A program made the position numbers and the translations under genes. A DNA stretch of 64,000 nucleotides from a virus. Positions 10,412 to 25,752 of the stretch are shown here, piece after piece (within the stretch, counting starts at the first letter, position 1; each line of letters begins with the position of its first letter). The notes beneath the pieces were generated by a model that worked only from the letters and a program-made list of their open reading frames with translations, had not been told where the DNA came from and made no database searches. Where the stretch lies: positions 1-64,000 of the IMG/VR virus record IMGVR_UViG_3300017780_006957; one strand, written 5' to 3'.

Positions 10412-13045
10412 TTAAACAACAATTTCTTTAATTGAAACTTGAGTTGTTAAAGTTTCATTTTCTTGAATATTTGTCTGTTGCGAAAAGATATTTGCCCCTG
10501 ATTTCATTGCAATTGTCGCCCCAATAGTATTTTGGGCATTTTTTAATATTAAGTTTAAATCTGATGGGAGTTTTGATCCAGAAAAATTTATAAACGATGT
10601 TAAATCGGTAGAAGAGATATCCATTTGTTTTTCTACTGTATCTAATATAAAATTGCTAGCATTTGTTTGGCCCAAATTGTAAATGGGTGATCTTCCGCAA
10701 TTAACGGAATATCTAATAGAATTTTGAATATTACTAACAAATCCCGTTGTCGAGGAAATTGAACAAGTGTTTCCATTAATCATTGTATTTGCAAATCCAG
10801 TTGTTAAATCAATAGAAGCGGTATCTGTTGGCACATTAAACGAATATGTATTTCCAATTCCAATAACTCCTAATGTTGGAATATATTCAGTAGAATAGGG
10901 TAACGGCTCTAATTGCGCTCCGTATGCATATATAGCATCACCAGATGATTCTATTTCAATTCCTATCAAGGGATCTATAGCAGCTGGAAATGAATACCTT
11001 ACCCATTCGCTACTTAATTCGGGATTAATATTTATCCAATTCGTTCCGCCATCAAGCGTATAATTAATATTTCCAGTGCCAAAATGTCTTTTTAAATAAA
11101 TAGAAAAAGTTTTTTGCAAATTTGAAATAAATCCGTAATTATAAATAAATCCAGCATTTTGAGTTGCGTATAACTGTATTTTATTAAATTTGAGAATATA
11201 AGATTTGTTTATGTTGGATAGCCCATAATTTATGTGACTATATCCATCATCCCCCCACTGTATTCCTACATTTGGATTTGGAATAAAAATTCCAGAAGCA
11301 GTAATTGTATTATATCTTATTTCTATATCTCCAGTATTAAAATATAATTGTATTTGATATGTTTGAGGCTGTGAGCCGCTAAGAGCATTTACTGCGCTGT
11401 ATTCAATGATGAATTTATCAGTTTCTTGTTTATACCAAATTTTCCCACCACTAGCAAACATATCTCTCCAATAAGCGGCAATAAATTTTTTGGTAGTAGA
11501 TGGAATAGGAAAGTCTTGGTTTTGATAATCAGCATATCCTTGATCAGCGGAATCAAAAGAAATTATTCCATTATTGCTTATAAATACTTTTGAATAAGCC
11601 GCGCCTCCCATTGTAAATGTTTTTCCAGAAATAAAAGCTATACCAGTTGATAAATCATTATTAGTTTGCAATGACGATAAAAAAGTACCATCACCAGTTA
11701 TACTGGACCATGAAAATGGTTGCTGATTGTCTATTGCAAAAACTGAAGCATCAGTAACTGTTTGGCCTTTGCCTGAAATTAATGTCGCTTTATAGCCGCC
11801 AGTAGGATCTAGCTGATTTCCTATTGGCTCCTCGCAATTCGTATATAGATAATTGATGCCAGTTAACGATTCACTGTATAATAACTCATTTGTAGATGCT
11901 GGGGTAGTTATTGTTACATATTGTTGATTACTTACATTTAATACTGGTGCATTATTAACTATATAGCTGGCACTCAAACCAACGGGTTTAAATGGCTCCA
12001 CACTAACATCGTAATTGCTTAAATAACAGCCACTATAAATATTATTACCAAATCTAATATTATAAAAATTGTCTCCCGAAGAATCTAAAATAGTATTTAA
12101 TGCTCCAGAGGTTTCAGTATTAACATAGGAATTAAAAGAAATCTTTGCCTGTAAAGCTGCGCCATTAGTAAACTGACGATTTTGATCTATATCAACGCCC
12201 AATAATCTTGATGCATCATTTTGCGCCTGATAATCAATAGTTATGTTTTGGGCTGGGATATAATTATATGCTTTACCAAATATTAATTTTGTATGCGGCG
12301 AAACATAACCAGTAATTCCATTGACTGCATCGGCGGACAAAACACCAGTTAATGAAGCAGATCCAGAAGTAGAATTTGGAGCATAATAATCATTGTTTTG
12401 AAACATATAATAAAAAGACGTTCCTGTTGGATCATTAATTGCATTTAAAATTCCACTAGCAGATACTCCCAGACCAGAACATATCACTCCTGTATAAGCA
12501 GATGTTCCATAATATTTCCAGCCAGAACTAAAACCAGTTCCTGATGCATAAAATATACTGCCAATTGGACCTGGCGAGTAGTTGTCATAATAATCCAAAC
12601 TATATGTATCGTTACTTCCTGACCATTTTAATATTATAGCAAATGGAGTGAGTCCAGTATTCATATAATCAATGGTGTTACTACCCGAATTATAACCAGA
12701 AAAATATAATTCAGGCAGTAGCGCCTCTGGAAAAGAATCTGGTTCGATAGTTCTGCTTCCATCCAAATTATAAAAAACCAAAGATCTAAATTGCGGCAAA
12801 AGTATTTGCGCGTCTGGCGCTGTGTAATTTATTTTCGGCGCAAAGAGTTGTTCATAGTTTGAAGCATTACCAGAAACCCGCGTAAAAGAGTTGTTTAAAT
12901 ACTGCACAGAAGTGTTTTGGGCAGTGGATTTATTTATCATGTATAATGAATTATCAATTCCATTTGGATCATAGATATTGGCGAAGGGTAAAGTATCTAA
13001 GCTGTCTTCTTTTCTGATATATACTGGGAGGTCGCTGTAGTTCAT
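10412..13045 (-). CDS. Virion protein, tail-tube-like core with inserted carbohydrate-binding-like and NIDO-like domains
   Basis: 877 aa; NIDO-like VFISNNGIISF...FIAAYWRDM...TYQIQL; spike-like NELLYSE...AYGAQLE...EYIPT; tube-like SIRYSVNCGRSPIYNLG. Confidence 0.45.
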   Translation of the reverse strand: MNYSDLPVYIRKEDSLDTLPFANIYDPNGIDNSLYMINKSTAQNTSVQYLNNSFTRVSGNASNYEQLFAPKINYTAPDAQILLPQFRSLVFYNLDGSRTIEPDSFPEALLPELYFSGYNSGSNTIDYMNTGLTPFAIILKWSGSNDTYSLDYYDNYSPGPIGSIFYASGTGFSSGWKYYGTSAYTGVICSGLGVSASGILNAINDPTGTSFYYMFQNNDYYAPNSTSGSASLTGVLSADAVNGITGYVSPHTKLIFGKAYNYIPAQNITIDYQAQNDASRLLGVDIDQNRQFTNGAALQAKISFNSYVNTETSGALNTILDSSGDNFYNIRFGNNIYSGCYLSNYDVSVEPFKPVGLSASYIVNNAPVLNVSNQQYVTITTPASTNELLYSESLTGINYLYTNCEEPIGNQLDPTGGYKATLISGKGQTVTDASVFAIDNQQPFSWSSITGDGTFLSSLQTNNDLSTGIAFISGKTFTMGGAAYSKVFISNNGIISFDSADQGYADYQNQDFPIPSTTKKFIAAYWRDMFASGGKIWYKQETDKFIIEYSAVNALSGSQPQTYQIQLYFNTGDIEIRYNTITASGIFIPNPNVGIQWGDDGYSHINYGLSNINKSYILKFNKIQLYATQNAGFIYNYGFISNLQKTFSIYLKRHFGTGNINYTLDGGTNWININPELSSEWVRYSFPAAIDPLIGIEIESSGDAIYAYGAQLEPLPYSTEYIPTLGVIGIGNTYSFNVPTDTASIDLTTGFANTMINGNTCSISSTTGFVSNIQNSIRYSVNCGRSPIYNLGQTNASNFILDTVEKQMDISSTDLTSFINFSGSKLPSDLNLILKNAQNTIGATIAMKSGANIFSQQTNIQENETLTTQVSIKEIVV

Positions 13046-13297
13046 TTTTTTTCCTTTTTCCTTTCATTGTTACACTTGTTTTTGTTTTTAGTTTTTTCCT
13101 TTTTCCAAAATACGGTCCCGTATTTTTTTTACTTTACGTTTAGAGCTTTTGTGAATGAGTGGATGAGAAAGTGAGGAAACTGTCCCCCCGCCGTTTCTGT
13201 TAGGTTAGACTAACAGAAGTTTTGAGTAATGGGGGGGGGTCAGTCTAACGGTCTGTTAGCCTAACGGTCTGTTAGCTCAGCATGGCCACGACATAGG

Positions 13298-13327
13298 AAA
13301 GCCCCGCCTTGTGAGGGCGGGGCTTTT
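13298..13327 (-). terminator. Intrinsic terminator
   Basis: AAAGCCCCGCC-TTGTGAG-GGCGGGGCTTT hairpin just downstream of the ORF ending at 13341. Confidence 0.75.
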
Positions 13328-13340
13328 CGGTTAGGTTAGA

Positions 13341-13583
13341 TTAGATGATGCCTTTGATATGAAGGGAGCGAAATTTTTCAATATCGCCGTCGTCGTGGTC
13401 TATCACATTGGCGACGAAATACCACTCGCCAGTCTTAACGGCACAAGCGATTTTGTCCACCGATACGATGGTAAAATTCCGATAGTCGTCGGTGTGGGGT
13501 AGAGCGGCGGCGGCGGCGGTTGCATAGCGGACGGATTGCCCGACGATACGGGTAACGATTGCGGTGGCTTCAATGATGGTCAT
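13341..13583 (-). CDS. Small hypothetical early protein
   Basis: MTIIEATAIV... downstream of a minus-strand TTGTGG...CATTCT promoter of the array type; ends at a terminator. Confidence 0.6.
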   Translation of the reverse strand: MTIIEATAIVTRIVGQSVRYATAAAAALPHTDDYRNFTIVSVDKIACAVKTGEWYFVANVIDHDDGDIEKFRSLHIKGII

Positions 13584-13756
13584 TTCAGGTATTCTGGTTT
13601 GGACTAGGGGCGGGGGCCTTGTGCCTCCCGACAAGGAAAGAATGCCATAGGACGGACCTTGCCACAAGCTTTCTTTTGTTCTTTTCAAAAGATTTTTTTC
13701 TGAAAAAAAAGGTTGACGACCTCCCGCGAGATCGGTCTAACGGAAATGTAGAGTGG

Positions 13757-13835
13757 CTATACTATAGCAAAGCTATACTATACTATACCATACTATACTA
13801 ACGGATGGTTAGAAGCTATACTATAGCTATACTAA
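13757..13835. repeat. Degenerate CTATA pentamer tandem repeat
   Basis: ctatactatagcaaagctatactatactataccatactatactaac...gctatactatagctatactaac. Confidence 0.75.
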
Positions 13836-13837
13836 CA

Positions 13838-13869
13838 AAATCTAACAGAACGCCCCTTCTGTTAGATTT
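13838..13869. repeat. 32-bp palindrome, copy 1
   Basis: AAATCTAACAG-AACGCCCCTT-CTGTTAGATTT. Confidence 0.9.
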
Positions 13870-13954
13870 CTGTCACTAATCTGTCACTAAGTTCTGCTAG
13901 ACCATTGTCAAGCTTTTTCTCAAAAGAAAGTTTTTTAATTGAACGAAATAGTTC

Positions 13955-13989
13955 TTGTGGTGGGTCCGTTCTTGTCCTATGATTTGGCC
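13955..13989 (+). promoter_or_regulatory. Sigma70-type leaderless promoter
   Basis: TTGTGG-17bp-TATGAT-6bp-ATG with an upstream A/T tract. Confidence 0.75.
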
Positions 13990-14259
13990 ATGTCCACGAC
14001 ATCCACCACCCGCCTAGTCCAAGTCCAATTCAACGTTGAAATTGGAGAAATTGAAAAAGAGTTGACCTTTGAATTCGAATACACGCCAAGTTGCAAAGGC
14101 TCACGCGACTTTTACGGTCAACAAAATGAGCCTGATACTAATGACGAAATGGAATTCGTCGCCGCCTATGACGAGGACGGCGAGGAGGTCGAAATCGCTT
14201 GCAAGCAAGAAATCGAATGCGCTTGTCAACTTGCATGGCAAGAGGTAGCAAACGACTAA
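13990..14259 (+). CDS. Small acidic early protein (paralog of 17101-17367)
   Basis: EYTPSCKGSRDFYGQQNEPD...DEDGEEVEI; start defined by the leaderless promoter. Confidence 0.8.
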   Translation: MSTTSTTRLVQVQFNVEIGEIEKELTFEFEYTPSCKGSRDFYGQQNEPDTNDEMEFVAAYDEDGEEVEIACKQEIECACQLAWQEVAND

Positions 14260-14298
14260 TCCAACCGCCCCCCGCAAGGGGGGCAAACCCTTTGCCCC

Positions 14299-14406
14299 AT
14301 GAAAATACTAACCGAAATCACATTCTGCGCGTTCCTTGGCCTCGCGCTTGTCACCGCCCCGCTTGCGTTGCGAGCGGTCCTCAAGCTGATAGAATCTATC
14401 AACTAA
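14299..14406 (+). CDS. 35-aa hydrophobic peptide
   Basis: MKILTEITFCAFLGLALVTAPLALRAVLKLIESIN, ending just before a terminator. Confidence 0.5.
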   Translation: MKILTEITFCAFLGLALVTAPLALRAVLKLIESIN

Positions 14407-14419
14407 CTCTAATCTAGCA

Positions 14420-14446
14420 GCCCACCCGAAAGGGTGGGTTTCTTTT
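14420..14446 (+). terminator. Intrinsic terminator (array family)
   Basis: GCCCACCC-GAAA-GGGTGGGT followed by TTCTTTT. Confidence 0.85.
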
Positions 14447-14473
14447 CTGCTAGAATCTAACCGTTAGTGACGA

Positions 14474-14505
14474 AAATCTAACAGAACGCGGCTTCTGTTA
14501 GATTT
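14474..14505. repeat. 32-bp palindrome, copy 2
   Basis: AAATCTAACAG-AACGCGGCTT-CTGTTAGATTT. Confidence 0.9.
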
Positions 14506-14712
14506 CTGTTAGAGTCTAACTATTAGGCCGTTACAAAATCACAGCCTAATCTAACTATTAGACCGTTAGAAAATCACAGCCTAACTCCCCATTCTGTTAC
14601 TTTTCTGCTAGGTAAATCTGCTAGGCTGTTGTCAAGCTTTTTCTTAAAAAAAGTTTTCAAATTAAGCGAAAAAGATCTTGCGGCGGGTCCGTTTCTCACC
14701 TATTCTTTGGCC

Positions 14713-14847
14713 ATGTCCAACACCGCCCAACTCCTAGAACAAGCCACCTGTTACTGCATTTATTTCGTGACCTTTATCGTCTGCCCCGTCATCGCGGGGT
14801 ATGCCCTAACAACTCTTTACTTCATCTTCAAAGACTTTCCCAACTAA
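14713..14847 (+). CDS. Small membrane protein, leaderless
   Basis: TTGCGG(14678)-17-TATTCT-6-ATG; hydrophobic, 44 aa. Confidence 0.65.
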   Translation: MSNTAQLLEQATCYCIYFVTFIVCPVIAGYALTTLYFIFKDFPN

Positions 14848-14848
14848 C

Positions 14849-14977
14849 ATGAAAACCCTCCTCTTCAACCTAACAAGAATCCTTTTCGCTACGGTAGCGT
14901 GTGCTACCTTCTGGGCCTTTGTCGCCTATGGTATCCACTCTGTCATTCAACCCTTCTTCCCATACTACCTACCATGA
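14849..14977 (+). CDS. Small membrane protein
   Basis: MKTLLFNLTRILFATVACATFWAFVAYGIHSVIQPFFPYYLP; ATGA overlap with the next ORF. Confidence 0.55.
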   Translation: MKTLLFNLTRILFATVACATFWAFVAYGIHSVIQPFFPYYLP

Positions 14978-15243
14978 CATCTAACGTCCAAGAGTTCCTT
15001 AAGAATCCAATTGATGCGCCACGCCACAAGGCTCGCGTCCTAGTCAATAGGGCAGTGAAAGATCTATCAGGTGGGGCTGTATGTCTCAGTGATCTAGCAG
15101 ATACGTTCAACCTGTGTGCTGGGTTGGATGAGTTGGAAGAGCTGATAGATGAGGCTGACGAGTTCACCCCCATGCAAGACCTGCTAGACGTAGCCCAAGA
15201 CATTGCGGCACAACTGCTAGAAGAAGAGGGCTTCCCCGCCTAA
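14974..15243 (+). CDS. Small acidic early protein
   Basis: MTSNVQEFL...LDELEELIDEADE...LLEEEGFPA; translationally coupled. Confidence 0.7.
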   Translation: MTSNVQEFLKNPIDAPRHKARVLVNRAVKDLSGGAVCLSDLADTFNLCAGLDELEELIDEADEFTPMQDLLDVAQDIAAQLLEEEGFPA

Positions 15244-15352
15244 CAGATCAAGCCCTGAGCATGGCGATAAAAGGCTCTAACTTTCTAACTGGTGGACATG
15301 GTAAGTCCTCGCCCCTGCGAGTGTAGGGCGGGGCAGTCTGCTAGAATCTAAC

Positions 15353-15384
15353 AAATCTAACAGGCCCCCTCTTCTGTTAGATTT
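15353..15384. repeat. 32-bp palindrome, copy 3
   Basis: AAATCTAACAG-GCCCCCTCTT-CTGTTAGATTT. Confidence 0.9.
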
Positions 15385-15518
15385 CTGTCACTAATCTGTC
15401 ACTAATCTGTCAGTAAATTCTGCTAGGAAAATGTCAAGCTTTTTCTCAAAAAAAAGTTTTCGAATCGCATGAAATAGTTCTTGCGGGTTTCTAGGTTTTC
15501 TGCCATTCTCTCCTTGCC

Positions 15519-15692
15519 ATGACACTACTTGCACCACTACTGATCCAACTCGAAATTGCCGAACGCGAAACCTCCGACCTCTGGCGCGAAACGCCTTGGG
15601 ACGAAAAAGGTTTTGAGTTGAATGAAAATTTGATTCGCTCCCTCAGAAATGCGATCATCGCAATCGACCCGACCGCCTACGAAATCCTCTGA
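15519..15692 (+). CDS. 57-aa early protein
   Basis: MTLLAPLLIQLEIAERETSDLWRETPWDEK...; between promoter TTGCGG(15481)-17-CATTCT and a terminator; absent from the supplied ORF track. Confidence 0.7.
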   Translation: MTLLAPLLIQLEIAERETSDLWRETPWDEKGFELNENLIRSLRNAIIAIDPTAYEIL

Positions 15693-15701
15693 ACCCTAAC
15701 A

Positions 15702-15729
15702 ACCCACCCGAAAGGGTGGGTTCCTTTTT
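15702..15729 (+). terminator. Intrinsic terminator (array family)
   Basis: ACCCACCC-GAAA-GGGTGGGT followed by TCCTTTTT. Confidence 0.85.
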
Positions 15730-15780
15730 GGTTAGAATCTAACAGAAAAAACTAGCAGCTTTTTAACAGTTTAGTGACGG

Positions 15781-15812
15781 AAATCTAACAGGCCCCCTTT
15801 TCTGTTAGATTC
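15781..15812. repeat. 32-bp palindrome, copy 4
   Basis: AAATCTAACAG-GCCCCCTTTT-CTGTTAGATTC. Confidence 0.9.
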
Positions 15813-15976
15813 TTGTTGGGATTCTGTTAGAGTCTAACTATTAGGTCATTAAAAAATCACAGCCTATTTAGGCATTAAAAAATTGCAGCCTGTCAAGTCT
15901 TTTCTCAAAAAAAAATAATCAAAGAAAACACAAAAAAGATCTTGTCGTGGGGTAAAATTTCACCTATTCTCCGAGT

Positions 15977-16129
15977 ATGAGCTTGCTCCCATTCCCAGCC
16001 GATTCCACTGAGTTCGAAGAATACGTTTCCGTCATGGAGGCTATGGCCGACGAGGCTATCGCGTCCACGCCCGATCCGCGCCCTGAAAATTTCTACTATG
16101 AAGATGGTCCTCGCTCCTACGCCCACTGA
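15977..16129 (+). CDS. 50-aa acidic early protein (paralog of 16588-16863)
   Basis: MSLLPFPADSTEFEEYVSVMEAMADEAIASTPDPRP...; promoter TTGTCG-17-TATTCT-6-ATG. Confidence 0.8.
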   Translation: MSLLPFPADSTEFEEYVSVMEAMADEAIASTPDPRPENFYYEDGPRSYAH

Positions 16130-16131
16130 TT

Positions 16132-16338
16132 ATGTATACCGTTGAATATTACCTTGTCGTTCCCCGCGCCGTGCGTGTCGGGGTTGCCATCCACTCCTCG
16201 CCCAAGGAGGCTTATCGTCTGGCTGTTTGCCGCGCCTACGATGCCTCTGCCGCCTCTGGCGGGTGTGAGAGTATCGGGGTGGAGGGCTACACCATGTGGC
16301 TTGATGGCAAAAAAATCCACTCCTTTTGCGACATTTAA
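16132..16338 (+). CDS. Small hypothetical early protein
   Basis: Starts 2 nt after the previous stop and ends at a terminator. Confidence 0.6.
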   Translation: MYTVEYYLVVPRAVRVGVAIHSSPKEAYRLAVCRAYDASAASGGCESIGVEGYTMWLDGKKIHSFCDI

Positions 16339-16345
16339 TCTTGAC

Positions 16346-16374
16346 AACCCGCTCGAAAGGGTGGGTTTCTTTTC
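16346..16374 (+). terminator. Intrinsic terminator (array family)
   Basis: ACCCGCTC-GAAA-GGGTGGGT plus a T tract. Confidence 0.8.
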
Positions 16375-16401
16375 GGTTAGAATCTAACAGAAAAGTAGTA
16401 G

Positions 16402-16433
16402 AAATCTAACAGAAGGCGTGTTCTGTTAGATTT
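16402..16433. repeat. 32-bp palindrome, copy 5
   Basis: AAATCTAACAG-AAGGCGTGTT-CTGTTAGATTT. Confidence 0.9.
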
Positions 16434-16587
16434 CCGTTAGAACCCAACTATTAGGCTGTTAGAAAATCACAGCCTATTTAGGTGTAGAAAAATTGCAGCC
16501 TGTCAAGCTTTTTCTTAAAAAAAAGTTTCAGAATAATGCAAAATAGTTCTTGTCATTGGTTCGTTTTTTAGTCATCCTCTGGTCGTT

Positions 16588-16863
16588 ATGAACCTCATTC
16601 CATTCCCTGCTGATTCCGCCGATTACGAAGAATACACCAGCGTTATGAACGCGATGGCTGACGAGGCCAATGCGTCCGCGCCCGATCCCGAGCCTGATGG
16701 CTGGTCGCCCGATGAAGAATCCGATGAGCTTCGCGCTCGTGAAGACGGTGACTACTACGCCAACCTCTACGAGCGCGAGGACGATTACGATGACGGTGAT
16801 CCCTACGGGTGCGACGATCAAATTTCTGAGTATGGCATGGAAGGGTGCTGCGGCGACTTCTGA
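16588..16863 (+). CDS. Very acidic early protein
   Basis: MNLIPFPADSADYEEYTSVMNAMADEA...EDDYDDGD; has its own promoter and terminator. Confidence 0.8.
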   Translation: MNLIPFPADSADYEEYTSVMNAMADEANASAPDPEPDGWSPDEESDELRAREDGDYYANLYEREDDYDDGDPYGCDDQISEYGMEGCCGDF

Positions 16864-16872
16864 ACCCTAACA

Positions 16873-16900
16873 GCCCACCCGAAAGGGTGGGTTCATTTTT
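16873..16900 (+). terminator. Intrinsic terminator (array family)
   Basis: GCCCACCC-GAAA-GGGTGGGT followed by TCATTTTT. Confidence 0.85.
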
Positions 16901-16927
16901 GGTTAGAATCTAACAGTTTAGTGACGA

Positions 16928-16959
16928 AAATCTAACGGAACGCCCCTTCCGTTAGATTT
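16928..16959. repeat. 32-bp palindrome, copy 6 (compensatory change in both arms)
   Basis: AAATCTAACGG-AACGCCCCTT-CCGTTAGATTT. Confidence 0.9.
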
Positions 16960-17100
16960 CTGTCACTAATCTGTCACTAAATTCTGCTAGAAAAATGTCA
17001 AGCTTTTTCTTGAAAAAAAGTTTTAGGAAAGACATAAAAAAAGCTTGTTGCTAGTCCGCTTCTGAACTATCTTCGGGCGTCTCCAAACCACCTAAAAAAA

Positions 17101-17367
17101 ATGAGCAAGCAAGTTGAAATATTCATGGATGTTGAAAAGCTGAATTCTGATGGCGATGTAATCGGATGTGACAGTATTCTTGTCGTTGGCGAATATTCGC
17201 CAGCGGAGAGAGGATCTTGTGATTACTACGGCCAAGCGATGGAACCCGACCTTCCCGATTCCATGGAAATCCTTTCTGCCACGACTGAGGATGGCGAGGA
17301 AATCGACCTTGGAAAATGCGAAGAAAGAGTCGCCTTAGAACTCCTATGGGAAGCGATTGCAGATTGA
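17101..17367 (+). CDS. Small acidic early protein (paralog of 13990-14259)
   Basis: EYSPAERGSCDYYGQAMEPD...TEDGEEIDL. Confidence 0.8.
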   Translation: MSKQVEIFMDVEKLNSDGDVIGCDSILVVGEYSPAERGSCDYYGQAMEPDLPDSMEILSATTEDGEEIDLGKCEERVALELLWEAIAD

Positions 17368-17375
17368 GCCTAACG

Positions 17376-17404
17376 GCCCGCCCTAACAAGGCGGGCTTCT
17401 TTTT
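17376..17404 (+). terminator. Intrinsic terminator
   Basis: GCCCGCC-CTAACAA-GGCGGGC followed by TTCTTTTT. Confidence 0.8.
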
Positions 17405-17431
17405 GGTTAGAATCTAACGGTTTAGTGACAG

Positions 17432-17463
17432 AAATCTAACAAAACGCCTCTTCTGTTAGATTT
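17432..17463. repeat. 32-bp palindrome, copy 7
   Basis: AAATCTAACAA-AACGCCTCTT-CTGTTAGATTT. Confidence 0.88.
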
Positions 17464-17631
17464 TCGTTAGATCTGTTACTTACTCAGTATTAAGGACTTA
17501 TCTATTTACAGCCTATTTAATTGCAGATGAATTGCAGCCTATTTGTCAAGAAAAAAATCACAGGACAGTAGAAATAAATATCCAAAAAAGATCTTGCAAG
17601 GGCCATTGTTCTCTGTCATTCTCTCCTCGCC

Positions 17632-17784
17632 ATGAAACTACTAAAGAAAATCTACTACTATCTCAACCCACTTCCTGCCCCCAAATACGGCGCATCAATC
17701 TTTGAACAAAAAAGCTGGTTGACAAAGCAAACCGAGGAGGCTATGTTTCGCCAAGCGAAAGCTCACATCTATCAAACACGCTAA
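17632..17784 (+). CDS. 50-aa basic early protein
   Basis: MKLLKKIYYYLNPLPAPKY...; promoter TTGCAA(17594)-17-CATTCT. Confidence 0.55.
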   Translation: MKLLKKIYYYLNPLPAPKYGASIFEQKSWLTKQTEEAMFRQAKAHIYQTR

Positions 17785-17794
17785 CTCTCCACAT

Positions 17795-17977
17795 ATGAAA
17801 ATATATAAAATTCCCTGCGTTTGGGAAGTCTATGGACACTTGGAAATCGAAGCTGAATCATTGGAAGGCGCGATTTCTATTGCTGAAGATGACGATACCA
17901 ACCTGCCCATTGAAAGCTCTTACATTGAAGGATCTTTTTGGGTTGATTGCGACGGCATTGACCTTGACGAAGAATAA
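17795..17977 (+). CDS. Small acidic hypothetical protein
   Basis: EIEAESLEGAISIA motif seen in many small phage early proteins. Confidence 0.7.
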   Translation: MKIYKIPCVWEVYGHLEIEAESLEGAISIAEDDDTNLPIESSYIEGSFWVDCDGIDLDEE

Positions 17978-18016
17978 AATTGACAAAGGGGGCGAAAGCC
18001 CCCACACTTTCCCCGT

Positions 18017-18337
18017 ATGAATACACTACCACCACCACCCGCCATTATCAAAGTGAACACAGACTTCTCCGCAGGATTGGATCTTCGTAATCCATTAGAA
18101 TCTGCCGCCTATCTTAAAGCAGCAAGCCACTTCCTCTCATCTTGGCCGCAAGATTGGTCTGCCGAACGCCTTTGCTTGGCAATGATTGACGAGGAATCTC
18201 CTGATAAAGATCTAGTCAAACCTTGGGAAGCTCTAACAAAAGACCTTCACCCAATGGATGACCCCTTGTTCTTTGTGGAAGAATTAATCAATGGCTTGGC
18301 CGAGGACTTTTTGATCTTTCTATCAGAAAACGCATGA
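18017..18337 (+). CDS. Hypothetical acidic protein
   Basis: 106 aa; preceded by TTGACA-17-CACACT. Confidence 0.7.
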   Translation: MNTLPPPPAIIKVNTDFSAGLDLRNPLESAAYLKAASHFLSSWPQDWSAERLCLAMIDEESPDKDLVKPWEALTKDLHPMDDPLFFVEELINGLAEDFLIFLSENA

Positions 18338-18507
18338 ACGCTCTCGAAAAACTTCAAGATGTAAAAGAGTATATCTCCACTCTAATTAACGGGAGCGAAG
18401 CCGAAGCTATTGATCTATTGGTCAACTATGGCGAAATGATGGAAGAAAATCTAGCAGAAGTAATAAAAGAATTATTCGATGAAACATCTAGTCCTAACAA
18501 TCCATAA
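18334..18507 (+). CDS. 57-aa acidic protein
   Basis: ATGA overlap with the previous ORF; MNALEKLQDVKEYIST... Confidence 0.6.
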   Translation: MNALEKLQDVKEYISTLINGSEAEAIDLLVNYGEMMEENLAEVIKELFDETSSPNNP

Positions 18508-18617
18508 AAATCATGTATCTTATCGCATGGGCAATCGTTGTGGCAGTCATTGTTTTTCTGGCGACCCGCCGCAGAAAGTAGTTGACTACCTAATCAAACT
18601 AATCAATCCTTCTTCAC

Positions 18618-18806
18618 ATGAAATCATTTGAACGCACCGCCGAATCTATCGAACTCGATCCTTGCTCAAGCTATTGGTTAAAAGAAAGAATTAAAGAACT
18701 CCGTGAGCGCGATCCTTTCGACGCTTTGCGCGACATTGAAACATTGAATTGGCTTTTTGAAATGAGAGCCGAAGAATTGAAACCTTCTTACATGAAAGGG
18801 CTTTAA
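18618..18806 (+). CDS. Hypothetical protein
   Basis: DPCSSYWLK...RDPFDALRDIETL; TAATG coupling to the next ORF. Confidence 0.7.
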   Translation: MKSFERTAESIELDPCSSYWLKERIKELRERDPFDALRDIETLNWLFEMRAEELKPSYMKGL

Positions 18807-19126
18807 TGTTAACCGTGCAAGAAGCCGATTGTTTTATCAAATTAGAGTTGAAATCGTGGGGTCTAAAAAACTATTCGTGGGAATGGGCGGGCTTTTCTCA
18901 TTTGGGAGAAGCTCACCCCCATAAAAACAAAATTAAATTGTCTCCACGAATTCTTTCCTCCTCTGCTCTTCTGATTGAAATTGTAAAACATGAAATCGCC
19001 CATTGTTTAGATTGGAATGAACGTGGGACATTTGCAAGAAATGGCAAAAATGATTTTCATGGTAAAAATTGGAAAAAATACTGCTTGCTTGTCGGATGCC
19101 GTCCGCGTAGATTGATCCCGTTATGA
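18806..19126 (+). CDS. SprT-like zinc metalloprotease
   Basis: IKLS...HEIAH...HGKNWK SprT signature. Confidence 0.8.
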   Translation: MLTVQEADCFIKLELKSWGLKNYSWEWAGFSHLGEAHPHKNKIKLSPRILSSSALLIEIVKHEIAHCLDWNERGTFARNGKNDFHGKNWKKYCLLVGCRPRRLIPL

Positions 19127-19284
19127 AAACAATTGATATGACTCCCACTTGGTCTGATATTCTTCCCATTCTGATTCGTCTGATTGGAAACTACAAAACC
19201 CACAAAGATGCATCTATCGAATTGGCTCGCATGGCCAAAATGGCTGATGCCTATATTGAAAGCCAAAAAACAAAAGATTTCTAG
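19123..19284 (+). CDS. 53-aa hypothetical protein
   Basis: MKTIDMTPTWSDILPIL...ELARMAKMAD; ATGA overlap. Confidence 0.6.
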   Translation: MKTIDMTPTWSDILPILIRLIGNYKTHKDASIELARMAKMADAYIESQKTKDF

Positions 19285-19342
19285 TTGACATGGTGTGGGT
19301 AAGGGCGAGGGGGTCTGGTAGCCTCCTCGCCCAACTCGCTGA

Positions 19343-19374
19343 AAATCTAACAGAAGAGGGCCGCTGCTAGATTC
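19343..19374. repeat. 32-bp palindrome, copy 8 (spacer inverted)
   Basis: AAATCTAACAG-AAGAGGGCCG-CTGCTAGATTC. Confidence 0.88.
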
Positions 19375-19557
19375 TGTTAGAAATCTGTTACTTTTCTGTT
19401 AGTCGAGCTGTTAGGCGATAAAAGATGAAAAACAATGAAAAAGATGTGGACAAGTCCGCTGGCTGTGCTATTCTTTCCCCAGCGAAAGCAAACAAAAGAA
19501 GACCAGATGCTTCGCCCCAGCAGAAAGGGGCAACCTCAAACCAAACCACACAAAAAA

Positions 19558-20352
19558 ATGTCACTCATCATTGCAAAAAACAAAGTCAACGCCGAACAAC
19601 TCGCTTCCGTTTTCACCCCTGAAAAAACCGAATCGTTTCAGCCAATCCCTCACTTCGGCCTTGTCGAGCTTACCCGTGAAGCTATTGGCCGCGCTGGTCT
19701 TTCCATCTCTCAAGAAGAGCATTCGCTTGCTCGCGGTGGTCAACGCTACTTCGGCGGCTTCGCCCTCTCTGGTCTTGACATCACGGGCGCGGATCGTCAA
19801 ATCGTGTTAGGTCTTCGGAACGCTCACGATAAATCCTTTGCCGCTTCGATTTGCGTTGGCAATCGCATGATGGTCTGCGAAAACCTTTGCTTCTCTTCGG
19901 ATATCAAGCTCGCTCGTCGTCACACCACGAACATCATGACGGACCTTCCCCGTGTCCTTGCCGATGCTGTTGGGCGTGTCGTCTCTCATTGGAATGACAT
20001 GGGCAATCGGATTGAAAGCTACAAGCAAACCGAAATCACCCGTGACCGCGCCGCTGATCTTCTGATCGACCTTGTGGATTCCAAAGCATTCCCTGCGCGT
20101 GAAATCTACAACGCCGTGCAAGAGTTCCGCAACCCTCGCCACGAAGAGTTCAAAGGCGGCTCCCTGTGGACGCTCTACAACTCTGTGACCGAAAACCTCA
20201 AGGGTGGCGACCTTTCCAAGTTGCCTTTCCGCACGATGACCGCGCAAAGCATTTTTGACCGTATCGCGGGACATCGCCCAACAATTGAAAGCGTCATTGA
20301 TCTTGCCGATGCTGGCGAGGAAATGGAAACGCTGATCGTTGCGGGAGCGTAA
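19558..20352 (+). CDS. DUF932-like protein
   Basis: FQPIPH...LGLRNAHDKS...RMMVCENLCF...RRHT...SLWTLYNSVTE pattern; start at MSLII. Confidence 0.7.
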   Translation: MSLIIAKNKVNAEQLASVFTPEKTESFQPIPHFGLVELTREAIGRAGLSISQEEHSLARGGQRYFGGFALSGLDITGADRQIVLGLRNAHDKSFAASICVGNRMMVCENLCFSSDIKLARRHTTNIMTDLPRVLADAVGRVVSHWNDMGNRIESYKQTEITRDRAADLLIDLVDSKAFPAREIYNAVQEFRNPRHEEFKGGSLWTLYNSVTENLKGGDLSKLPFRTMTAQSIFDRIAGHRPTIESVIDLADAGEEMETLIVAGA

Positions 20353-20406
20353 CGCCTAACGGGGCGAGCCTAACGGCTCGCCCTAACTTTTGGTTAGGAT
20401 CTAACA

Positions 20407-20438
20407 GAATCTAGCAGCAGCCCTCTTCTGTTAGATTT
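20407..20438. repeat. 32-bp palindrome, copy 9
   Basis: GAATCTAGCAG-CAGCCCTCTT-CTGTTAGATTT. Confidence 0.88.
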
Positions 20439-20561
20439 CTGCTGAAAAAGCTGTTAGTGGTTTTCTGTTAGGCTTTGTCAAGTAAAAAAGCATGAAAAAT
20501 AAAAATCATTTTAATAAAGAAAAACCTTGTGGCTGGTCCGCTCTTTCGATACTCTTTGGCC

Positions 20562-20738
20562 ATGCAGACGAAGTTTTACACCCTCTCAAATTCATTCCGC
20601 ACCATCAAGCTCGCAACCTCCCGCTTTGGTTGTTTCATCAATAACGGTGAATTGGTTTATCGCATCAAAAGAAAAGAAGCGGCGAATGCCATGCGTTACG
20701 CTCGCGCCACTAACGGCAAAGTCTCCACAATGAAATAA
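20562..20738 (+). CDS. Small basic early protein, leaderless
   Basis: TTGTGG(20527)-17-TACTCT-6-ATG. Confidence 0.7.
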   Translation: MQTKFYTLSNSFRTIKLATSRFGCFINNGELVYRIKRKEAANAMRYARATNGKVSTMK

Positions 20739-20749
20739 TAATAAAAAAA

Positions 20750-21214
20750 ATGAATACCACCACCATCATCATGTCAATCGTCGCGTTGCTTTTGTTCTCT
20801 GCCATCTTTTTTCTTATACAAGATGAAATCCGAGTCGCAAAGCGGAATGCTGCTAGATACCGAGCCTATTGCAAAAAGCTGATAGACGAAAACGATTCTC
20901 TCCTGAACCATAAACCAAAACAAACCGTGAACAAAACACTAGACCAACTGATTGCCGAAACCAAAGGAAAATTCTTTTCCGTCACCTTTACCAAAAAAGA
21001 CGGTTCCGTTAGGACCATCAATGGCAAAGATAAATATCGTCGCCTCTTGGCTGGCGGAACTAACCGAGTCGAAGGATTGGGTTATGTCTCGTTCGTCAAC
21101 CGCAACGCCTCTAACATCCTAACAAAGAAGGGTGGCCAATGGGCTTGCGCTCACAAGGAAGGGGTTCTAACATTCAAGTGCGGCGAAATCAAAGCCGAGT
21201 TTGTGAAAGCCTAA
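20750..21214 (+). CDS. Membrane-anchored protein with a C-terminal SH3/WYL-like beta domain
   Basis: N-terminal TM helix; GKFFSVTFTKKDGSVRTING motif. Confidence 0.6.
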   Translation: MNTTTIIMSIVALLLFSAIFFLIQDEIRVAKRNAARYRAYCKKLIDENDSLLNHKPKQTVNKTLDQLIAETKGKFFSVTFTKKDGSVRTINGKDKYRRLLAGGTNRVEGLGYVSFVNRNASNILTKKGGQWACAHKEGVLTFKCGEIKAEFVKA

Positions 21215-21223
21215 CAACTAACA

Positions 21224-21252
21224 GCCCCACCCGAAAGGGTGGGGTTCTTTTT
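21224..21252 (+). terminator. Intrinsic terminator (array family)
   Basis: GCCCCACCC-GAAA-GGGTGGGGT followed by TCTTTTT. Confidence 0.85.
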
Positions 21253-21267
21253 GGCTCGCATCTAACA

Positions 21268-21299
21268 GAATCTAACAGCTGCCCTCTTCTGTTAGATTT
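21268..21299. repeat. 32-bp palindrome, copy 10
   Basis: GAATCTAACAG-CTGCCCTCTT-CTGTTAGATTT. Confidence 0.88.
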
Positions 21300-21372
21300 T
21301 TGTTAGGCTCTATCAGGATAAAATAAATGAACTATTTATTGACATAAATTCACAGGCTGGTATCTTACACCC

Positions 21373-21684
21373 ATGCAAACGCTATTCGAATACCAGTCCA
21401 CTTACGCCGCCACTCCTGAGTATCGCATCGCTCGCCCTAACGGGTGCGTGTCATTCATGGCATCAGTTGAACATGATGAAGACGAGGCAGATGATTTCTT
21501 GTTAGAAAGAATCTTCGCTCTTTGCAATCACGGTTCTGGCCGTGAACATGAGCAGTTCAAAGTCACCCCTATCCCTTCTCTTTCTGTGGGAGACTATGTA
21601 AAATTGGGTTGCAGGAAGGGCGACGTTGTGCGACTCTATCGCTGCGAACCAACTGGATGGAGTCAATCATTCACTACTAACTAA
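21373..21684 (+). CDS. Hypothetical early protein (YodL-like motif), leaderless
   Basis: TTGACA-16-TATCTT-6-ATG; LERIF..CN...SLSVGDYV...YRCEPTGW. Confidence 0.65.
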   Translation: MQTLFEYQSTYAATPEYRIARPNGCVSFMASVEHDEDEADDFLLERIFALCNHGSGREHEQFKVTPIPSLSVGDYVKLGCRKGDVVRLYRCEPTGWSQSFTTN

Positions 21685-21688
21685 AAAC

Positions 21689-22063
21689 ATGAAAGTCAGA
21701 ATCTATTACAACTTCCACAAGAAACTCTTCTCTGTTCAAGAGAAGGTGAACGGATCTTGGAAGGTCGTTGAATACACAAAGGAAATCTTTCTCCGCAATG
21801 CAACGTTCAAGGTGAGCGAAGCAGGGCGGCAAAGAGTCTTGAAAGAAAAGCGTAAAAATGTTCATGCGTTCATCTTGGGCGAGCGTTTCCCCTTCATCCC
21901 CAAGTCTTTTGTCTATCGTGACGAAATTTCTTACAACCCTTACAAGGGGCCGAACTTTATGGTAGTATCAGAAGACAAGCCTCTCGACAAGGCCAAATAT
22001 GTTACTATACTCAACGGCAAGGTGATAGCTCTGATTCCCGAATTCAAAGGAATAAGGATCTAA
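21689..22063 (+). CDS. Conserved phage hypothetical protein
   Basis: MKVRIYYNFHKKLFSV...GRQRVLKEKRKNVHAF...YNPYK. Confidence 0.75.
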   Translation: MKVRIYYNFHKKLFSVQEKVNGSWKVVEYTKEIFLRNATFKVSEAGRQRVLKEKRKNVHAFILGERFPFIPKSFVYRDEISYNPYKGPNFMVVSEDKPLDKAKYVTILNGKVIALIPEFKGIRI

Positions 22064-22072
22064 CGACCAACA

Positions 22073-22100
22073 GCCCCGCCCGAAAGGGTGGGGTTTTTTT
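22073..22100 (+). terminator. Intrinsic terminator (array family)
   Basis: GCCCCGCCC-GAAA-GGGTGGGGT followed by TTTTTT. Confidence 0.85.
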
Positions 22101-22105
22101 GGTTG

Positions 22106-22137
22106 AAATCTAACAGAACGGGGCGGCTGCTAGATTT
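22106..22137. repeat. 32-bp palindrome, copy 11 (spacer inverted)
   Basis: AAATCTAACAG-AACGGGGCGG-CTGCTAGATTT. Confidence 0.88.
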
Positions 22138-22258
22138 CTGTTAGAGCTTCTGTTAGAAATGCGTTAGGCTTCTGTTAGAGGATTGTTAGGGCCAGAAAAA
22201 TAAATAAAAATCATTAAAAAGAGCTTGCAAGGTCCGCTTCAAACGCTAAGATTTGGCC

Positions 22259-22957
22259 ATGTCACTCCTCAACTCTGGAAATAGCAAGACCCGCAAGGGT
22301 GAAAAAAAAGGCTTCACAACCTACGGCATTCACTTGGCCCCAGCCTCTCTATCAGGTTTCAATGTCTGCGACTCGTCAAGTGCGGGTTGCCGTTGGGCTT
22401 GTCTCAACACTGCGGGGCGCGGTGCAATGACTTCCGTTCAACGCGCACGAATCAAAAAAACGCTTTTCTTCTTTAAAGACAAGCAGGGTTTTCTAGCAGA
22501 ACTTTGGGCCGAGGTTGCAAAATCTATCAAGTCAGCTGCCCGTAAAAACATGATCCCTTGCTTTCGTTTAAATCTCACTTCGGATTTGCCGTGGGAAAAA
22601 ATTAAATTCAACGGGCAAAGTGTCATGGAAGCATTTCCTAACGTGCAATTTTATGACTATTGCAAGTCTCCCGAACGGATGACTAAATTTGTCAATGGTG
22701 AAATGCCAAAAAATTATCACCTCACGTTTTCAAGATCGGAAACTAACGGTGCGCTTGCTTTGGCTTTCCTGCGCTCTGGCGGAAACGTCGCAATGGTTTT
22801 CCGCAAGTCTCTTCCTGCTACATACTACGGCCACGAAGTGATCGACGGCGACGAAACGGACTTGCGTTTCTTGGACGGATCGGGTAAGATTATCGGGTTG
22901 AAAGAAAAAGGACTCGCCAAAAAAGATGCAACGGGCTTTGTGTTAGAACCAGCATGA
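22259..22957 (+). CDS. GP88-family protein, leaderless
   Basis: NVC...GC..CLNTAGRG, FRLNLTSDLPWE, QFYDY, NYHLTFSRSE and DGDETDLRFLD motifs; promoter TTGCAA-16-TAAGAT-6-ATG. Confidence 0.7.
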   Translation: MSLLNSGNSKTRKGEKKGFTTYGIHLAPASLSGFNVCDSSSAGCRWACLNTAGRGAMTSVQRARIKKTLFFFKDKQGFLAELWAEVAKSIKSAARKNMIPCFRLNLTSDLPWEKIKFNGQSVMEAFPNVQFYDYCKSPERMTKFVNGEMPKNYHLTFSRSETNGALALAFLRSGGNVAMVFRKSLPATYYGHEVIDGDETDLRFLDGSGKIIGLKEKGLAKKDATGFVLEPA

Positions 22958-23015
22958 GTATAGAAAATTTTGTAATTTTAATAATTATTATTCTTTTAAT
23001 ATCACACCGCAGCAC

Positions 23016-23225
23016 ATGAAAATTTTTCGCCAGTTAATTGAGACAGAACAAATCGGATGGTTCATTGCCGATGCCACACATGACGATGGCAAGATCCAAT
23101 CCCTGAAGGTTTTCCCTATCAGTAGTGACGGGGGTGTCGAGCAAGCTCTGGAATATGGGATGGTTACTCTATCCTCGCTCGTTGAAAGAATGCAAGAACA
23201 TCTAACGAAAAGCATCGAGGAATAA
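23016..23225 (+). CDS. Hypothetical protein
   Basis: 69 aa, ending before the terminator at 23237-23265. Confidence 0.6.
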   Translation: MKIFRQLIETEQIGWFIADATHDDGKIQSLKVFPISSDGGVEQALEYGMVTLSSLVERMQEHLTKSIEE

Positions 23226-23292
23226 CGACCTAACAAAACCTGCCCCTCTGAAGGGGGCGGGTTTTGTTAGGGATCTAACGAGAATCTAGCAG

Positions 23293-23324
23293 AAATCTAG
23301 CAGCCGCCCTCTTCTGTTAGATTT
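23293..23324. repeat. 32-bp palindrome, copy 12
   Basis: AAATCTAGCAG-CCGCCCTCTT-CTGTTAGATTT. Confidence 0.88.
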
Positions 23325-23435
23325 CACCTACACCTCTAGCCACACCTGTTAGATGGTGCTTATTTAGAGAGTTATTTATTTACAGGCTATTCATTCACAG
23401 GCATTATTAAGGCTCTGTGAATTCACAGGCGTTTT

Positions 23436-23510
23436 TGGTAGGTCGTGATGGAATCGAACCATCAACTAAAAATTAGAAGTTTCTTGTTATATCCATTTAA
23501 CTAACGACCC
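23436..23510 (-). tRNA. tRNA-Arg(UCU)
   Basis: GGGTCGT/ACGACCT acceptor, CTTCTAA anticodon loop, TTCGATT T-loop, encoded CCA. Confidence 0.9.
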
Positions 23511-25220: not shown

Positions 25221-25460
25221 TTAGTTAGCTGGAGTGAGGACAAACTCAATCTTGGGCTGTTCCTCGACTACCTCGCGGATCGGGGAGAGTGTGGCGACTG
25301 GAGTTTCGACTGTCAAGCCAATTTCTTCCAACCATTTTTTACTCACCACGATTCGTGAGTTCATTCCAACCGCATTAAGGAGGTCGGAGATGTTTACTCT
25401 TACAAAGGAGGTCGATCCTGCTGGACGACCACGGCGTTTGGTATGTGCTTCGTTGCTCAT
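25221..25460 (-). CDS. Small DNA-binding protein with an AT-hook-like motif
   Basis: KRRGRPAGS; promoter TTGACG-17-TACTCT upstream. Confidence 0.65.
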   Translation of the reverse strand: MSNEAHTKRRGRPAGSTSFVRVNISDLLNAVGMNSRIVVSKKWLEEIGLTVETPVATLSPIREVVEEQPKIEFVLTPAN

Positions 25461-25620
25461 GTGGGCAACAGAGTAATATCTTAGAACGTACCCGTCAACA
25501 TTTTTTCACATAAAAAATAATTAATCTAAACGAATGAAAACAAATGAGAATCTCTGGAATCAACTGAAAACAAACGAAAGATTAAATATCGGCGCGAAAT
25601 GGATCTATTTCAATTGTTTA

Positions 25621-25752
25621 TTATTTGGCGCGAAATCATTCACAGGCAAATTACATTATTTGGCCCCAAAGCATTCGCAGACGAATGTGTTATTTGGCCG
25701 AAATTAATTCACAGGCAAAATCATTATTTGGCAAAAATTTATTCACAGGTAG
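25621..25752. repeat. Four tandem ~34-bp iteron-like repeats
   Basis: TTATTTGGC-N8-ATTCRCAG units at 25621, 25656, 25690 and 25724. Confidence 0.8.

Follow-up and report, generated by a model that had tools for sequence, protein, structure and literature searches.

The 64,000-nucleotide stretch of viral DNA considered here (IMG/VR record IMGVR_UViG_3300017780_006957, positions 1–64,000; hereafter the window) carries, on its + strand at 13195..23430, an accessory-gene island of about 12 promoter-gene-terminator cassettes bounded by copies of a 32-bp palindrome. The 12 palindromes appear to be the centres of 12 boundary modules between self-contained transcription units in a hyperplastic part of the genome. 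We lean towards a reading in which each boundary is a terminator/promoter junction resembling the promoter early stem-loops (PeSLs) of T4-type phages, to which a platform for a sequence-specific DNA-binding protein has been added, and in which cassettes are shuffled by homologous exchange and not by an integron- or pdif-like system. The island stands out from its surroundings in composition and layout, with a GC content of 0.43–0.46 (about 45%) compared to 0.32–0.36 (about 33%) in the flanks, 12 GC points above the genome, and with genes on the + strand between two flanks encoded on the - strand. It sits between late/packaging genes on one side and a tRNA-Arg plus replication genes on the other, and its cassettes hold one to eight open reading frames (ORFs) each.

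The initial annotation had described 12 palindromes with a spacer of constant length, a centre that is inverted in copies 8 and 11, and a change in both arms of copy 6, and each of these features was recovered. A pattern search for RAATCTARCRG-N10-CYGYTAGATTY gave 12 matches in the 64 kb, all within the island (shuffled sequences, 0.01 expected), and no copy in the window outside of it; 11 of the 12 are exact. The copies, to which no strand is assigned, lie at 13838..13869 (P1), 14474..14505 (P2), 15353..15384 (P3), 15781..15812 (P4), 16402..16433 (P5), 16928..16959 (P6, with a symmetric ACGG/CCGT variant), 17432..17463 (P7, with one mismatch), 19343..19374 (P8, whose right arm is the CTGCTAGATTC variant belonging to the DUF932 cassette), 20407..20438 (P9), 21268..21299 (P10), 22106..22137 (P11, with the G-rich spacer strand on top), and 23293..23324 (P12, at the end of the last cassette, with no + strand gene after it). 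Relatives were found by pattern scans of viral and metagenome contigs, and the same palindrome occurs in arrays on about 20 of these. The spacer is 10 bp long in all 12 window copies and in 59 of 59 distinct copies from relatives, though its constancy in the relatives is partly by construction, as they were retrieved with a fixed-N10 pattern. The arm cores ATCTA and TAGAT (positions 3–7 and 26–30) are invariant in the 59 distinct copies, and the spacer is GC-rich, asymmetric, and variable between copies. Nine of the 12 sites have the spacer in the same orientation, copy 5 is ambiguous, and in copies 8 and 11 the spacer is flipped, so that its G-rich strand is on top, although the direction of the genes is unchanged.

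The two arms of a palindrome need not match. At arm position 8/25 the pair is A/T in 41 palindromes, G/C in two, and mixed in 17 (n = 60), and the mismatches between arms on the sense strand comprise eight A/C and nine G/T pairs. This lack of covariation argues that the element acts neither as an RNA hairpin nor as a cruciform. The arms do, however, match across a cassette, as both ends tend to share a variant (A/A, 44; G/G, 7; mixed, 4; Fisher p = 6e-6, a value that overstates independence because orthologous cassettes are counted repeatedly). The DUF932 cassette of the window, for example, is bounded by CTGCTAGATTC and GAATCTAGCAG at its two ends. Whole sites are also related to one another: read in reverse orientation, P8 matches P9 at all but one of the 32 bp, and P11 and P12, the pair around the GP88 cassette, are near-inverted copies of each other in the same manner, in the window and also in the relatives L006 and L021. 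Spacers differ at 3.58 of 10 positions within a genome compared to 5.13 between genomes (0 of 2000 permutations as extreme).

Each palindrome is the innermost unit pair of a two-sided CTAAC/GTTAG array with the GC-rich core in the middle. Across 66 distinct junctions from the window and its relatives the array is polar, with CTARC units predominantly on the left of the palindrome (243 left, 16 right) and GYTAG units on the right (178 right, 79 left). Successive units are phased, with a sharp mode in spacing at 11 bp (on the right side, 81 of ~180 intervals) and preferred right-hand positions at +9, +20/21, +31/32, +43, and +54 from the centre. A module has one to six CTAAC units on the left and two to five GTTAG units on the right. 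At 13870..13887 (+ strand) the units form CTGTCAC-TAAT-CTGTCAC, 11 bp apart, an arrangement that recurs at 15385 and 16960, and elsewhere they read CTGTTAGA or CTGCTAGA. The units belong to the island, as TCTARC hexamers occur at 7.7 per kb inside compared to 0.4 per kb outside, and neither the window nor the complete 133.8-kb genome of the relative G005 has unit clusters beyond its island. In the first cassette (13341–13838), at P1, CTATACTATA-type repeats (~13760–13835) take the place of the CTAAC units.

The complete module runs from an intrinsic terminator through GGTTAGAATCTAAC and further CTAAC units, the palindrome, the GTTAG units, TGTCAAG, and an A/T tract to the next promoter; this is the order of parts that the initial annotation had given, it can be read directly, and it agrees with scans for terminators and promoters. 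The promoters conform to TTGnnn-17-TAnnCT, and in eight of 11 cassettes end 6 or 9 nt before the ATG without a Shine-Dalgarno sequence. That of cassette 1 (TTGTGG-17-TATGAT, 13955..13983, + strand) ends 6 nt before the ATG at 13990, and promoters of the same build were located on the + strand at 14678–14706, 15481–15509, 15942–15970, 16550–16578, 17594–17622, 20527–20555, and 22225–22252. Cassette mRNAs are thus predicted to be leaderless or nearly so, and the genes are probably expressed early. The scan for terminators returned 28 terminator-like sites, with 11.7 expected, including the CCCACCC-GAAA-GGGTGGG type; AGCCCACCC-GAAA-GGGTGGGTT followed by a T run lies at 14419..14440 (+ strand), with equivalents on the same strand at 15701, 16346, 16872, 17375, 20361, 21223, and 22072.

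Loci of the wider phage group were gathered via the clamp loader (24302–25201 in the window) and the product of the first cassette gene (family F00), and it was possible to compare what occupies the boundary in each. The GC-richer island is constant in the group and the boundary element differs. In many relatives a GC core of about 20 bp is enclosed by two palindromes with arms of the TAAGTCGTTGA type, and both palindromes contain TATCAACGACTTA, a fit to the IHF consensus WATCAANNNNTTR. Others have AAACTTACA arms around GACCCCTACGGGGTC, the TTTACCTAGGCC...GGCCTAGGTAAA type, or a 22-bp GC core between CTAACAGATTTTT and AAAAATCTGTTAG. The last of these is found in L110 (3866–7354) and L109 (8191–8300 and 11641–11741), where GTTAG-T-CTAAC mini-palindromes precede CTAACAGATTTTT, a ~22-bp GC core, and AAAAATCTGTTAG, such that the units are those of the window and the centre is longer. 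The most direct comparison is with the sister contig IMGVR_UViG_3300036985_006080, which has a clamp loader 99% identical to that of the window and largely the same cassettes (76–96% DNA identity for those that align). It keeps the CTAAC/GTTAG units, and a 75-bp double-palindrome element replaces the 10-bp core. With its linkers the replacement is about 85 bp, and at the F04|F03 boundary it lies between ATCTAACAGAAG and GGCCCCTTCTGTTAGATTT, the border of arm and core; in sister phages with this element the flanking genes are 97–99% identical. As the centre can be exchanged with the units retained, units and centre are separable modules. The IHF consensus has a single match in the island of the window (18286), away from any palindrome, and the 32-mer does not fit it.

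In every version of the boundary a GC-rich centre is flanked by AT-rich inverted arms that resemble binding sites. The conservation of this architecture while its sequence changes, with lineage-specific motif types at the same place, is the principal argument for a co-evolving DNA-binding protein. Such a protein, whether from the phage, the virion, or the host, would nucleate on the palindrome and spread outward across the phased units to form a complex of about 120 bp, which could act in cis to control the early promoters and/or to block read-through. Since the module is repeated 12 times in direct order it would also be a substrate for homologous exchange, and crossovers within the common arms, both among cassettes and among relatives infecting the same cell, would result in the gain, loss, and reordering of whole cassettes, as has been proposed for PeSLs. 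A nucleoprotein platform was one of two options raised by the initial annotation, and of the two it agrees better with the polar, ~11-bp-spaced units and the lineage-specific motif types.

Several observations weigh against a bound platform. Among the relatives searched, no binder of the palindrome was found in the MrpR-like, HU/IHF, or OmpR-type families: MrpR (YopR) of phage SPbeta, sought by tblastn and genome search, matched nothing significantly in the window, the loci, or the genomes G001–G004, where divergence could hide a homologue, HU/IHF had no credible match (one sub-threshold match of 13.5 bits), and there was no OmpR-type winged helix. A recognisable -35 lies downstream of the CTAAC/GTTAG arrays by about 50 bp or more; the arrays do not replace it, and so are not classical occluding operators. 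Multi-gene cassettes contain internal promoter-like sites that have no palindrome. Nor does a plain operator account for the asymmetry of the GC core, for spacers being more alike within than between genomes, for the arm variant shared by the two ends of a cassette, or for the inverted whole-site copies around the DUF932 and GP88 cassettes; both the early timing and the leaderless starts are predicted from the DNA sequence.

Three proteins were considered as candidates for the binder and set aside. The F00 protein (80 aa; gene at 13341..13583, - strand) occurs as variants, and across the 19 loci compared these follow junction types I, II, and IV. Its structural model (predicted local distance difference test [pLDDT] score, 89) is a WYL/Sm-like SH3 barrel, with weak best matches to the WYL domains of BrxR, PafBC, CapW, and DriD (E ~0.1, probability <=0.97), and speaks against a reader of double-stranded DNA; given this fold, the correlation with junction type is read as linkage. 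From the model, F00 is possibly an anti-defence decoy for regulators with WYL sensors. A 349-aa protein (7456–8505) with a marginal similarity to YopR (tblastn E 1.4) resembles a small terminase subunit, with a helix-turn-helix and a coiled coil, and has no match in the PDB. The third, a 79-aa protein with a KRRGRPAGS motif (25221–25460, - strand), yielded a low-confidence model and no fold or sequence match. As in the island promoters, its ATG follows 9 nt after the end of the promoter (TTGACG-17-TACTCT), and four iterons (TTATTTGGC, ~10 nt, ATTCACAGGCAAA) lie upstream of its gene at 25560–25750. Iteron-related ATTCACAGGC and xCAGCCTATTTA motifs occur at the right end of the island (23380–23430) and in cassette spacers at 15860, 16470, 17509, and 17535.

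Cassette order varies among relatives. With cassettes grouped into families by interior similarity, the order is F00, F07, F02, F07, F01, F01, u, F03, F05, F04, F08, F06, end in the window, F12, F01, F00, F10, F02, F04, F03, F05, F06, F08, end in L006, and F05, F04, F06, F08 in L021, L028, and L031. Orientation is constant save for the first cassette (the F00 gene with its promoter and terminator), for which the window, L026, and L012 have one orientation and L009, L002, and L008 the opposite one. Among relatives with type I junctions the palindrome is present at the joint of every change in order, and the flanks of the window remain 85–97% identical to the sister contig where the island is rearranged. 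The shuffling of cassettes proposed in the initial annotation is therefore upheld as reordering at palindromes, and its recombinase-driven, integron- or pdif-like version is unsupported. Where neighbours differ, the sequence to the left of the palindrome tracks the upstream cassette and that to the right tracks the downstream cassette; upstream of GP88, for instance, the spacer is AACGGGGCGG, AACGGGGGCG, or AACAGGGGCG, with either F08 or F04 preceding. Whole spacers are thus inherited with one neighbour, which points to crossovers within the shared arms and not to cuts at the centre.

At the level of strains, joints were read from the assembled contigs of public runs (20 listed). Joints between near-identical strains cluster near palindromes, with others in promoters and at gene boundaries, including a joint in the -35 region (16552 to 13966) that is present in three runs and clean losses at the gene level within a cassette, one joining 17780 to 18017 and one, with 5 bp of microhomology, joining 18333 to 18479. 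Aligning relatives, as the initial annotation had proposed, thus gave a divided answer: the order differs and reordered cassettes meet at the palindrome, and joints also fall in the -35 and at gene boundaries, a scatter that it had named in advance as evidence against site-specific shuffling. When BLAST alignments to the window were considered, 25 of 152 block ends fell within 30 bp of a palindrome centre, a count that was not used as a map of breakpoints because many block ends reflect fast intergenic divergence. Thirteen single-copy AT-rich metagenome matches (e.g., L001, L003, L007, and L013) were judged to be chance or unrelated. No palindrome array was found in 185,579 bacterial species-representative genomes, which returned single unrelated terminator-like hairpins, several of them in Aureispira metagenome-assembled genomes, and pointed to no host.

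The foremost alternative, which we consider unlikely, is that a response regulator of the host, of the OmpR/PhoB type (PhoB, for example), binds the units and so ties early expression to the host's phosphate state; with no phage gene for an OmpR-type protein found in the relatives searched, a host protein would be needed. Direct repeats with an 11-bp period are a property of this regulator family, and the units of the window are repeated in this manner, mostly 11 bp apart in arrays of two to six. The CTGTCAC-TAAT-CTGTCAC at 13870, 15385, and 16960 agrees at 16 of 18 positions with the Escherichia coli Pho box consensus, sister phages with another central element retain the CTAAC units, and a phoH gene is nearby (9649–10422). 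Against this, most units are CTGTTAGA and so two changes away from a Pho repeat, the arrays do not take the place of a -35 as Pho boxes do, and arrays mirrored about a palindrome are unusual for the family. None of the 185,579 bacterial species representatives carries an array.

The likeness of spacers within a genome, the shared arm variants, and the inverted site copies leave some room, with low probability, for a more active mechanism. In one such mechanism, itself improbable, the boundary would be a purpose-built joint for cassette exchange, where an enzyme or complex of a non-canonical kind, assembled on the phased units, would cut or pair boundaries. An inverted arm pair proper to each cassette, together with the variants shared at its ends in different neighbourhoods and the ~85-bp IHF-type replacement of the core, would suggest such a joint. 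If true, it would constitute a recombinase-independent ‘moron integron’ moving self-expressing genes between phages.

We regard as improbable a dedicated site-specific exchange of the integron, pdif, or lox kind, in which an enzyme cuts at the border of arm and core and cassettes move as circles. Its attractions are the geometry (13-6-13 or 11-10-11 with an asymmetric core), the palindrome at the joint of each order change among type I relatives, arm variants that remain with the cassette at both ends, the inverted 32-bp sites flanking the DUF932 and GP88 cassettes, and the position of the sister element with its linkers between ATCTAACAGAAG and GGCCCCTTCTGTTAGATTT, at the border of arm and core. 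The enzymes, however, are missing where they were sought. No recombinase or transposase was present among the about 70 window ORFs scanned, in accord with the initial annotation, which had seen none (the nucleases there are of the endonuclease VII, GIY-YIG, HNH, and ERCC4 types). Searches of relatives were negative too, with no tyrosine recombinase (PF00589) in three complete genomes (G001, 140 kb; G002, 148 kb; and G005, 134 kb, carrying CTAAC units) or the partial records searched alongside, and no serine recombinase (PF00239) in G001 and G002. Moreover, unlike cores within one genome block exchange by tyrosine recombinases, spacers pass whole with one neighbour as arm crossovers would give, further joints occur in promoters and at gene boundaries, and cassettes between inverted sites were never observed inverted.

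Lower in rank is a recombination hotspot driven by structure, without a sequence-specific binder, in which cruciform extrusion or replication stalling would attract cuts by endonuclease VII that seed exchange. The phage does encode a protein of the endonuclease VII family (27084–27509), and every junction type is a long inverted repeat. A GC-rich, non-palindromic centre of 10 bp disfavours cruciform extrusion, though, and the arms are kept far beyond the needs of pairing even as 17 of 60 palindromes have mixed arms; the polar flanking units are left unexplained, making this quite improbable. Still less credence is given to the central elements being selfish miniature palindromic insertions that spread among boundaries without function for the phage. 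The 75-bp element with its linkers in place of the core, between genes 97–99% identical, and spacers more alike within than between genomes would be expected of such insertions, yet each terminator-promoter boundary has strictly one element and a complete 134-kb genome has none at other places, the architecture is kept over four or more motif types, and no transposase is among the window ORFs scanned. An element acting in RNA, as a back-up terminator or processing hairpin, is very improbable: it would explain the position directly downstream of each terminator, a potential stem of 11–13 bp, and one palindrome copy that scored as terminator-like on the - strand, but on the sense strand A/C mismatches occur about as often as G/T pairs, the flanks of the site hold just three A and three T, the spacer flips independently of gene direction, and Rfam identifies only tRNAs in the window.

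The hyperplastic island is probably an early one and probably serves anti-defence. Recognisable products include an SprT-like metalloprotease (18806..19126, + strand, cassette 7), a DUF932 protein (19435..20352, + strand, cassette 8), a member of the mycobacteriophage L5 gp82 family (21689..22063, + strand, cassette 10), a GP88-family protein (22259..22957, + strand, cassette 11), and a product with a weak WYL_2 match; the remainder are small orphans, several of them very acidic. Two stand-alone WYL/Sm-like SH3-barrel proteins are encoded, at 13344–13583 (F00, a family of 172 homologues, none of them named) and 20750–21214, and it is possible that such barrels are decoys for WYL-domain defence regulators (BrxR, CapW, and PafBC). 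The very acidic small proteins at 13990–14259, 15977–16129, 16588–16863, and 17101–17367 have common N-terminal or central motifs, such as MxLxPFPADSxxxEEY and YYGQ..EPD, and resemble paralogue families; these could be DNA mimics or other anti-defence proteins.

At the left, the island boundary (13150..13340, no strand) is sharp and marked by runs of C6 and G9 and by reversed units (TTCTGTTAG-GTTAGA-CTAACAGAA), and is kept in relatives. GAGGAAACTGTCCCCCCGCCG is retained in L002, the flank up to ~13244–13258 aligns with L009, L034, and L036, and two copies of CTAACGGTCTGTTAG are present. The contigs of several relatives begin or stop here, and the boundary may represent a packaging site or a physical end, if not a mere assembly break. 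The right end abuts the tRNA-Arg (23436–23510), one of seven tRNAs in the window.

The phage has a large genome, and its terminase large subunit (TerL; 4692–6551) is 22–28% identical to those of SPbeta/949/E3-type large phages; public runs holding the island are mostly freshwater and lake metagenomes. It is taken to be an uncultured, lytic freshwater phage with a genome of about 130–165 kb. A near-identity search with the island and a tblastn search with the neighbouring 877-aa protein found no match among 50,697 phage records. Other identifiable genes include rIIA (43099–45000) and a virion protein (50693–52003). Between the terminase gene and the island are an ERCC4 nuclease with a C2H2 finger (6555–7469), a sigma-70 region 2 protein (8492–9205), and PhoH (9649–10422). 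A Mom-family protein, associated with DNA adenine modification (55090–55767), ThyX (54420–55097), and a sulfotransferase (28430–29086) accompany the endonuclease VII family protein, and from these gene calls the phage may modify its DNA. Seven ORFs of 267–297 aa lie in a row at 56491–62728 (- strand), one with a lysozyme domain and two with weak matches to concanavalin-like lectins, and are possibly paralogous tail or host-recognition proteins.

The acquisition and reshuffling of small self-expressing phage genes (‘morons’ and anti-defence genes) are still poorly explained. To our knowledge, PeSLs are the sole mechanism described for reshuffling such accessory genes, and plain homology is thought to drive them. 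The repeated boundary described here also bears a putative docking array for a protein, and close relatives offer natural variants of it (a 10-bp core, a ~32-bp core, the 75-bp IHF-type element, and other arm sequences), making it testable which protein marks the boundaries of early units and whether it serves regulation only or also guides exchange. The island is in addition a compact catalogue of candidate early and anti-defence genes, comprising the WYL-like barrels, acidic proteins, SprT-like, DUF932, GP88, and L5 gp82 families.

Among known systems, arrays of many short phased units, both direct and inverted, that nucleate a large complex and allow one protein to serve many operons are familiar from plasmid partition and global control, where ParR binds the 11-bp iterons of R1 parC, omega binds 7-bp heptads, and KorB binds 12 OB sites of RK2, and the boundary arrays are alike in these respects; no ParR-, omega-, or KorB-like gene was noticed here, though no search was aimed at one. 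Integron attC and Xer-dependent pdif sites are similar in that cassettes are bounded by imperfect palindromes, with pdif further resembling the oppositely oriented sites around the DUF932 and GP88 cassettes. Integron cassettes, however, are promoterless and served by a common Pc, whereas each cassette in the window has its own promoter and terminator, and no IntI or other PF00589 protein was present in G001, G002, G005, or the window ORFs scanned. Sites do not alternate in orientation as in pdif modules, since only two cassettes lie between inverted sites and nine of 12 sites share one orientation, and the identical 6–8 bp overlap of lox, FRT, and dif sites is lacking, as the 12 cores differ (mean, 3.6 of 10 within a genome). 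Pho boxes lie ~10 bp upstream of the -10 in place of the -35, a placement the arrays do not have.

The repeated intergenic operator of the Bacillus phage SPbeta (SPbeta repeated element [SPBRE]) is likewise a short conserved element repeated in the intergenic regions of a large phage, where it is bound by MrpR (YopR) and controls many transcription units (PMC10516654). As MrpR has a tyrosine-recombinase fold without recombinase activity (PMC10516654), lox-like site geometry need not mean recombination. SPBRE differs in being a 15-bp motif with nine peaks in chromatin affinity precipitation sequencing (ChAP-seq) in a temperate phage, for which no phased unit arrays are described (PMC10516654), and in having an MrpR, of which no phage-encoded counterpart was found in the window, loci, or G001–G004. 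Closer at hand, the 75-bp element of the sister phages has the same boundary position as the 32-mer and the same AT-rich inverted repeats around a GC core, and only the 75-bp element fits the IHF consensus.

The closest likeness is to PeSLs, in which small accessory ORFs are separated by a composite of terminator stem-loop, AT-rich tract, and host-type early promoter, and which are clustered in a hyperplastic region flanked by conserved modules (PMC2839356; PMC4122927). Adjacent ORFs undergo insertion, deletion, replacement, and displacement among close relatives, and the explanations proposed are exchange by homology or, possibly, site-specific exchange through mini-circles (PMC2839356; PMC4122927). 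The window has the same composite of terminator, A/T tract, and promoter upstream of small ORFs, its hypervariable region lies between packaging and replication modules, indels, replacements, and displacements between close relatives occur at or near the motifs, and the scattered strain joints are the behaviour described for PeSLs (PMC4122927). It departs from them in belonging to a phage that is not T4-type, with a TerL distantly like those of SPbeta/949-type siphoviruses, though with rIIA and a clamp loader present, in an island 12 GC points richer than its genome, and in mRNAs predicted to be leaderless and to lack a Shine-Dalgarno sequence. Above all, it has further parts between the stem-loop and the promoter, namely a 32-bp palindrome whose GC core is always 10 bp long and polar units mostly 11 bp apart, such that the polar 11-bp unit arrays, the interchangeable central modules, and the predicted leaderless cassettes are what is new here.

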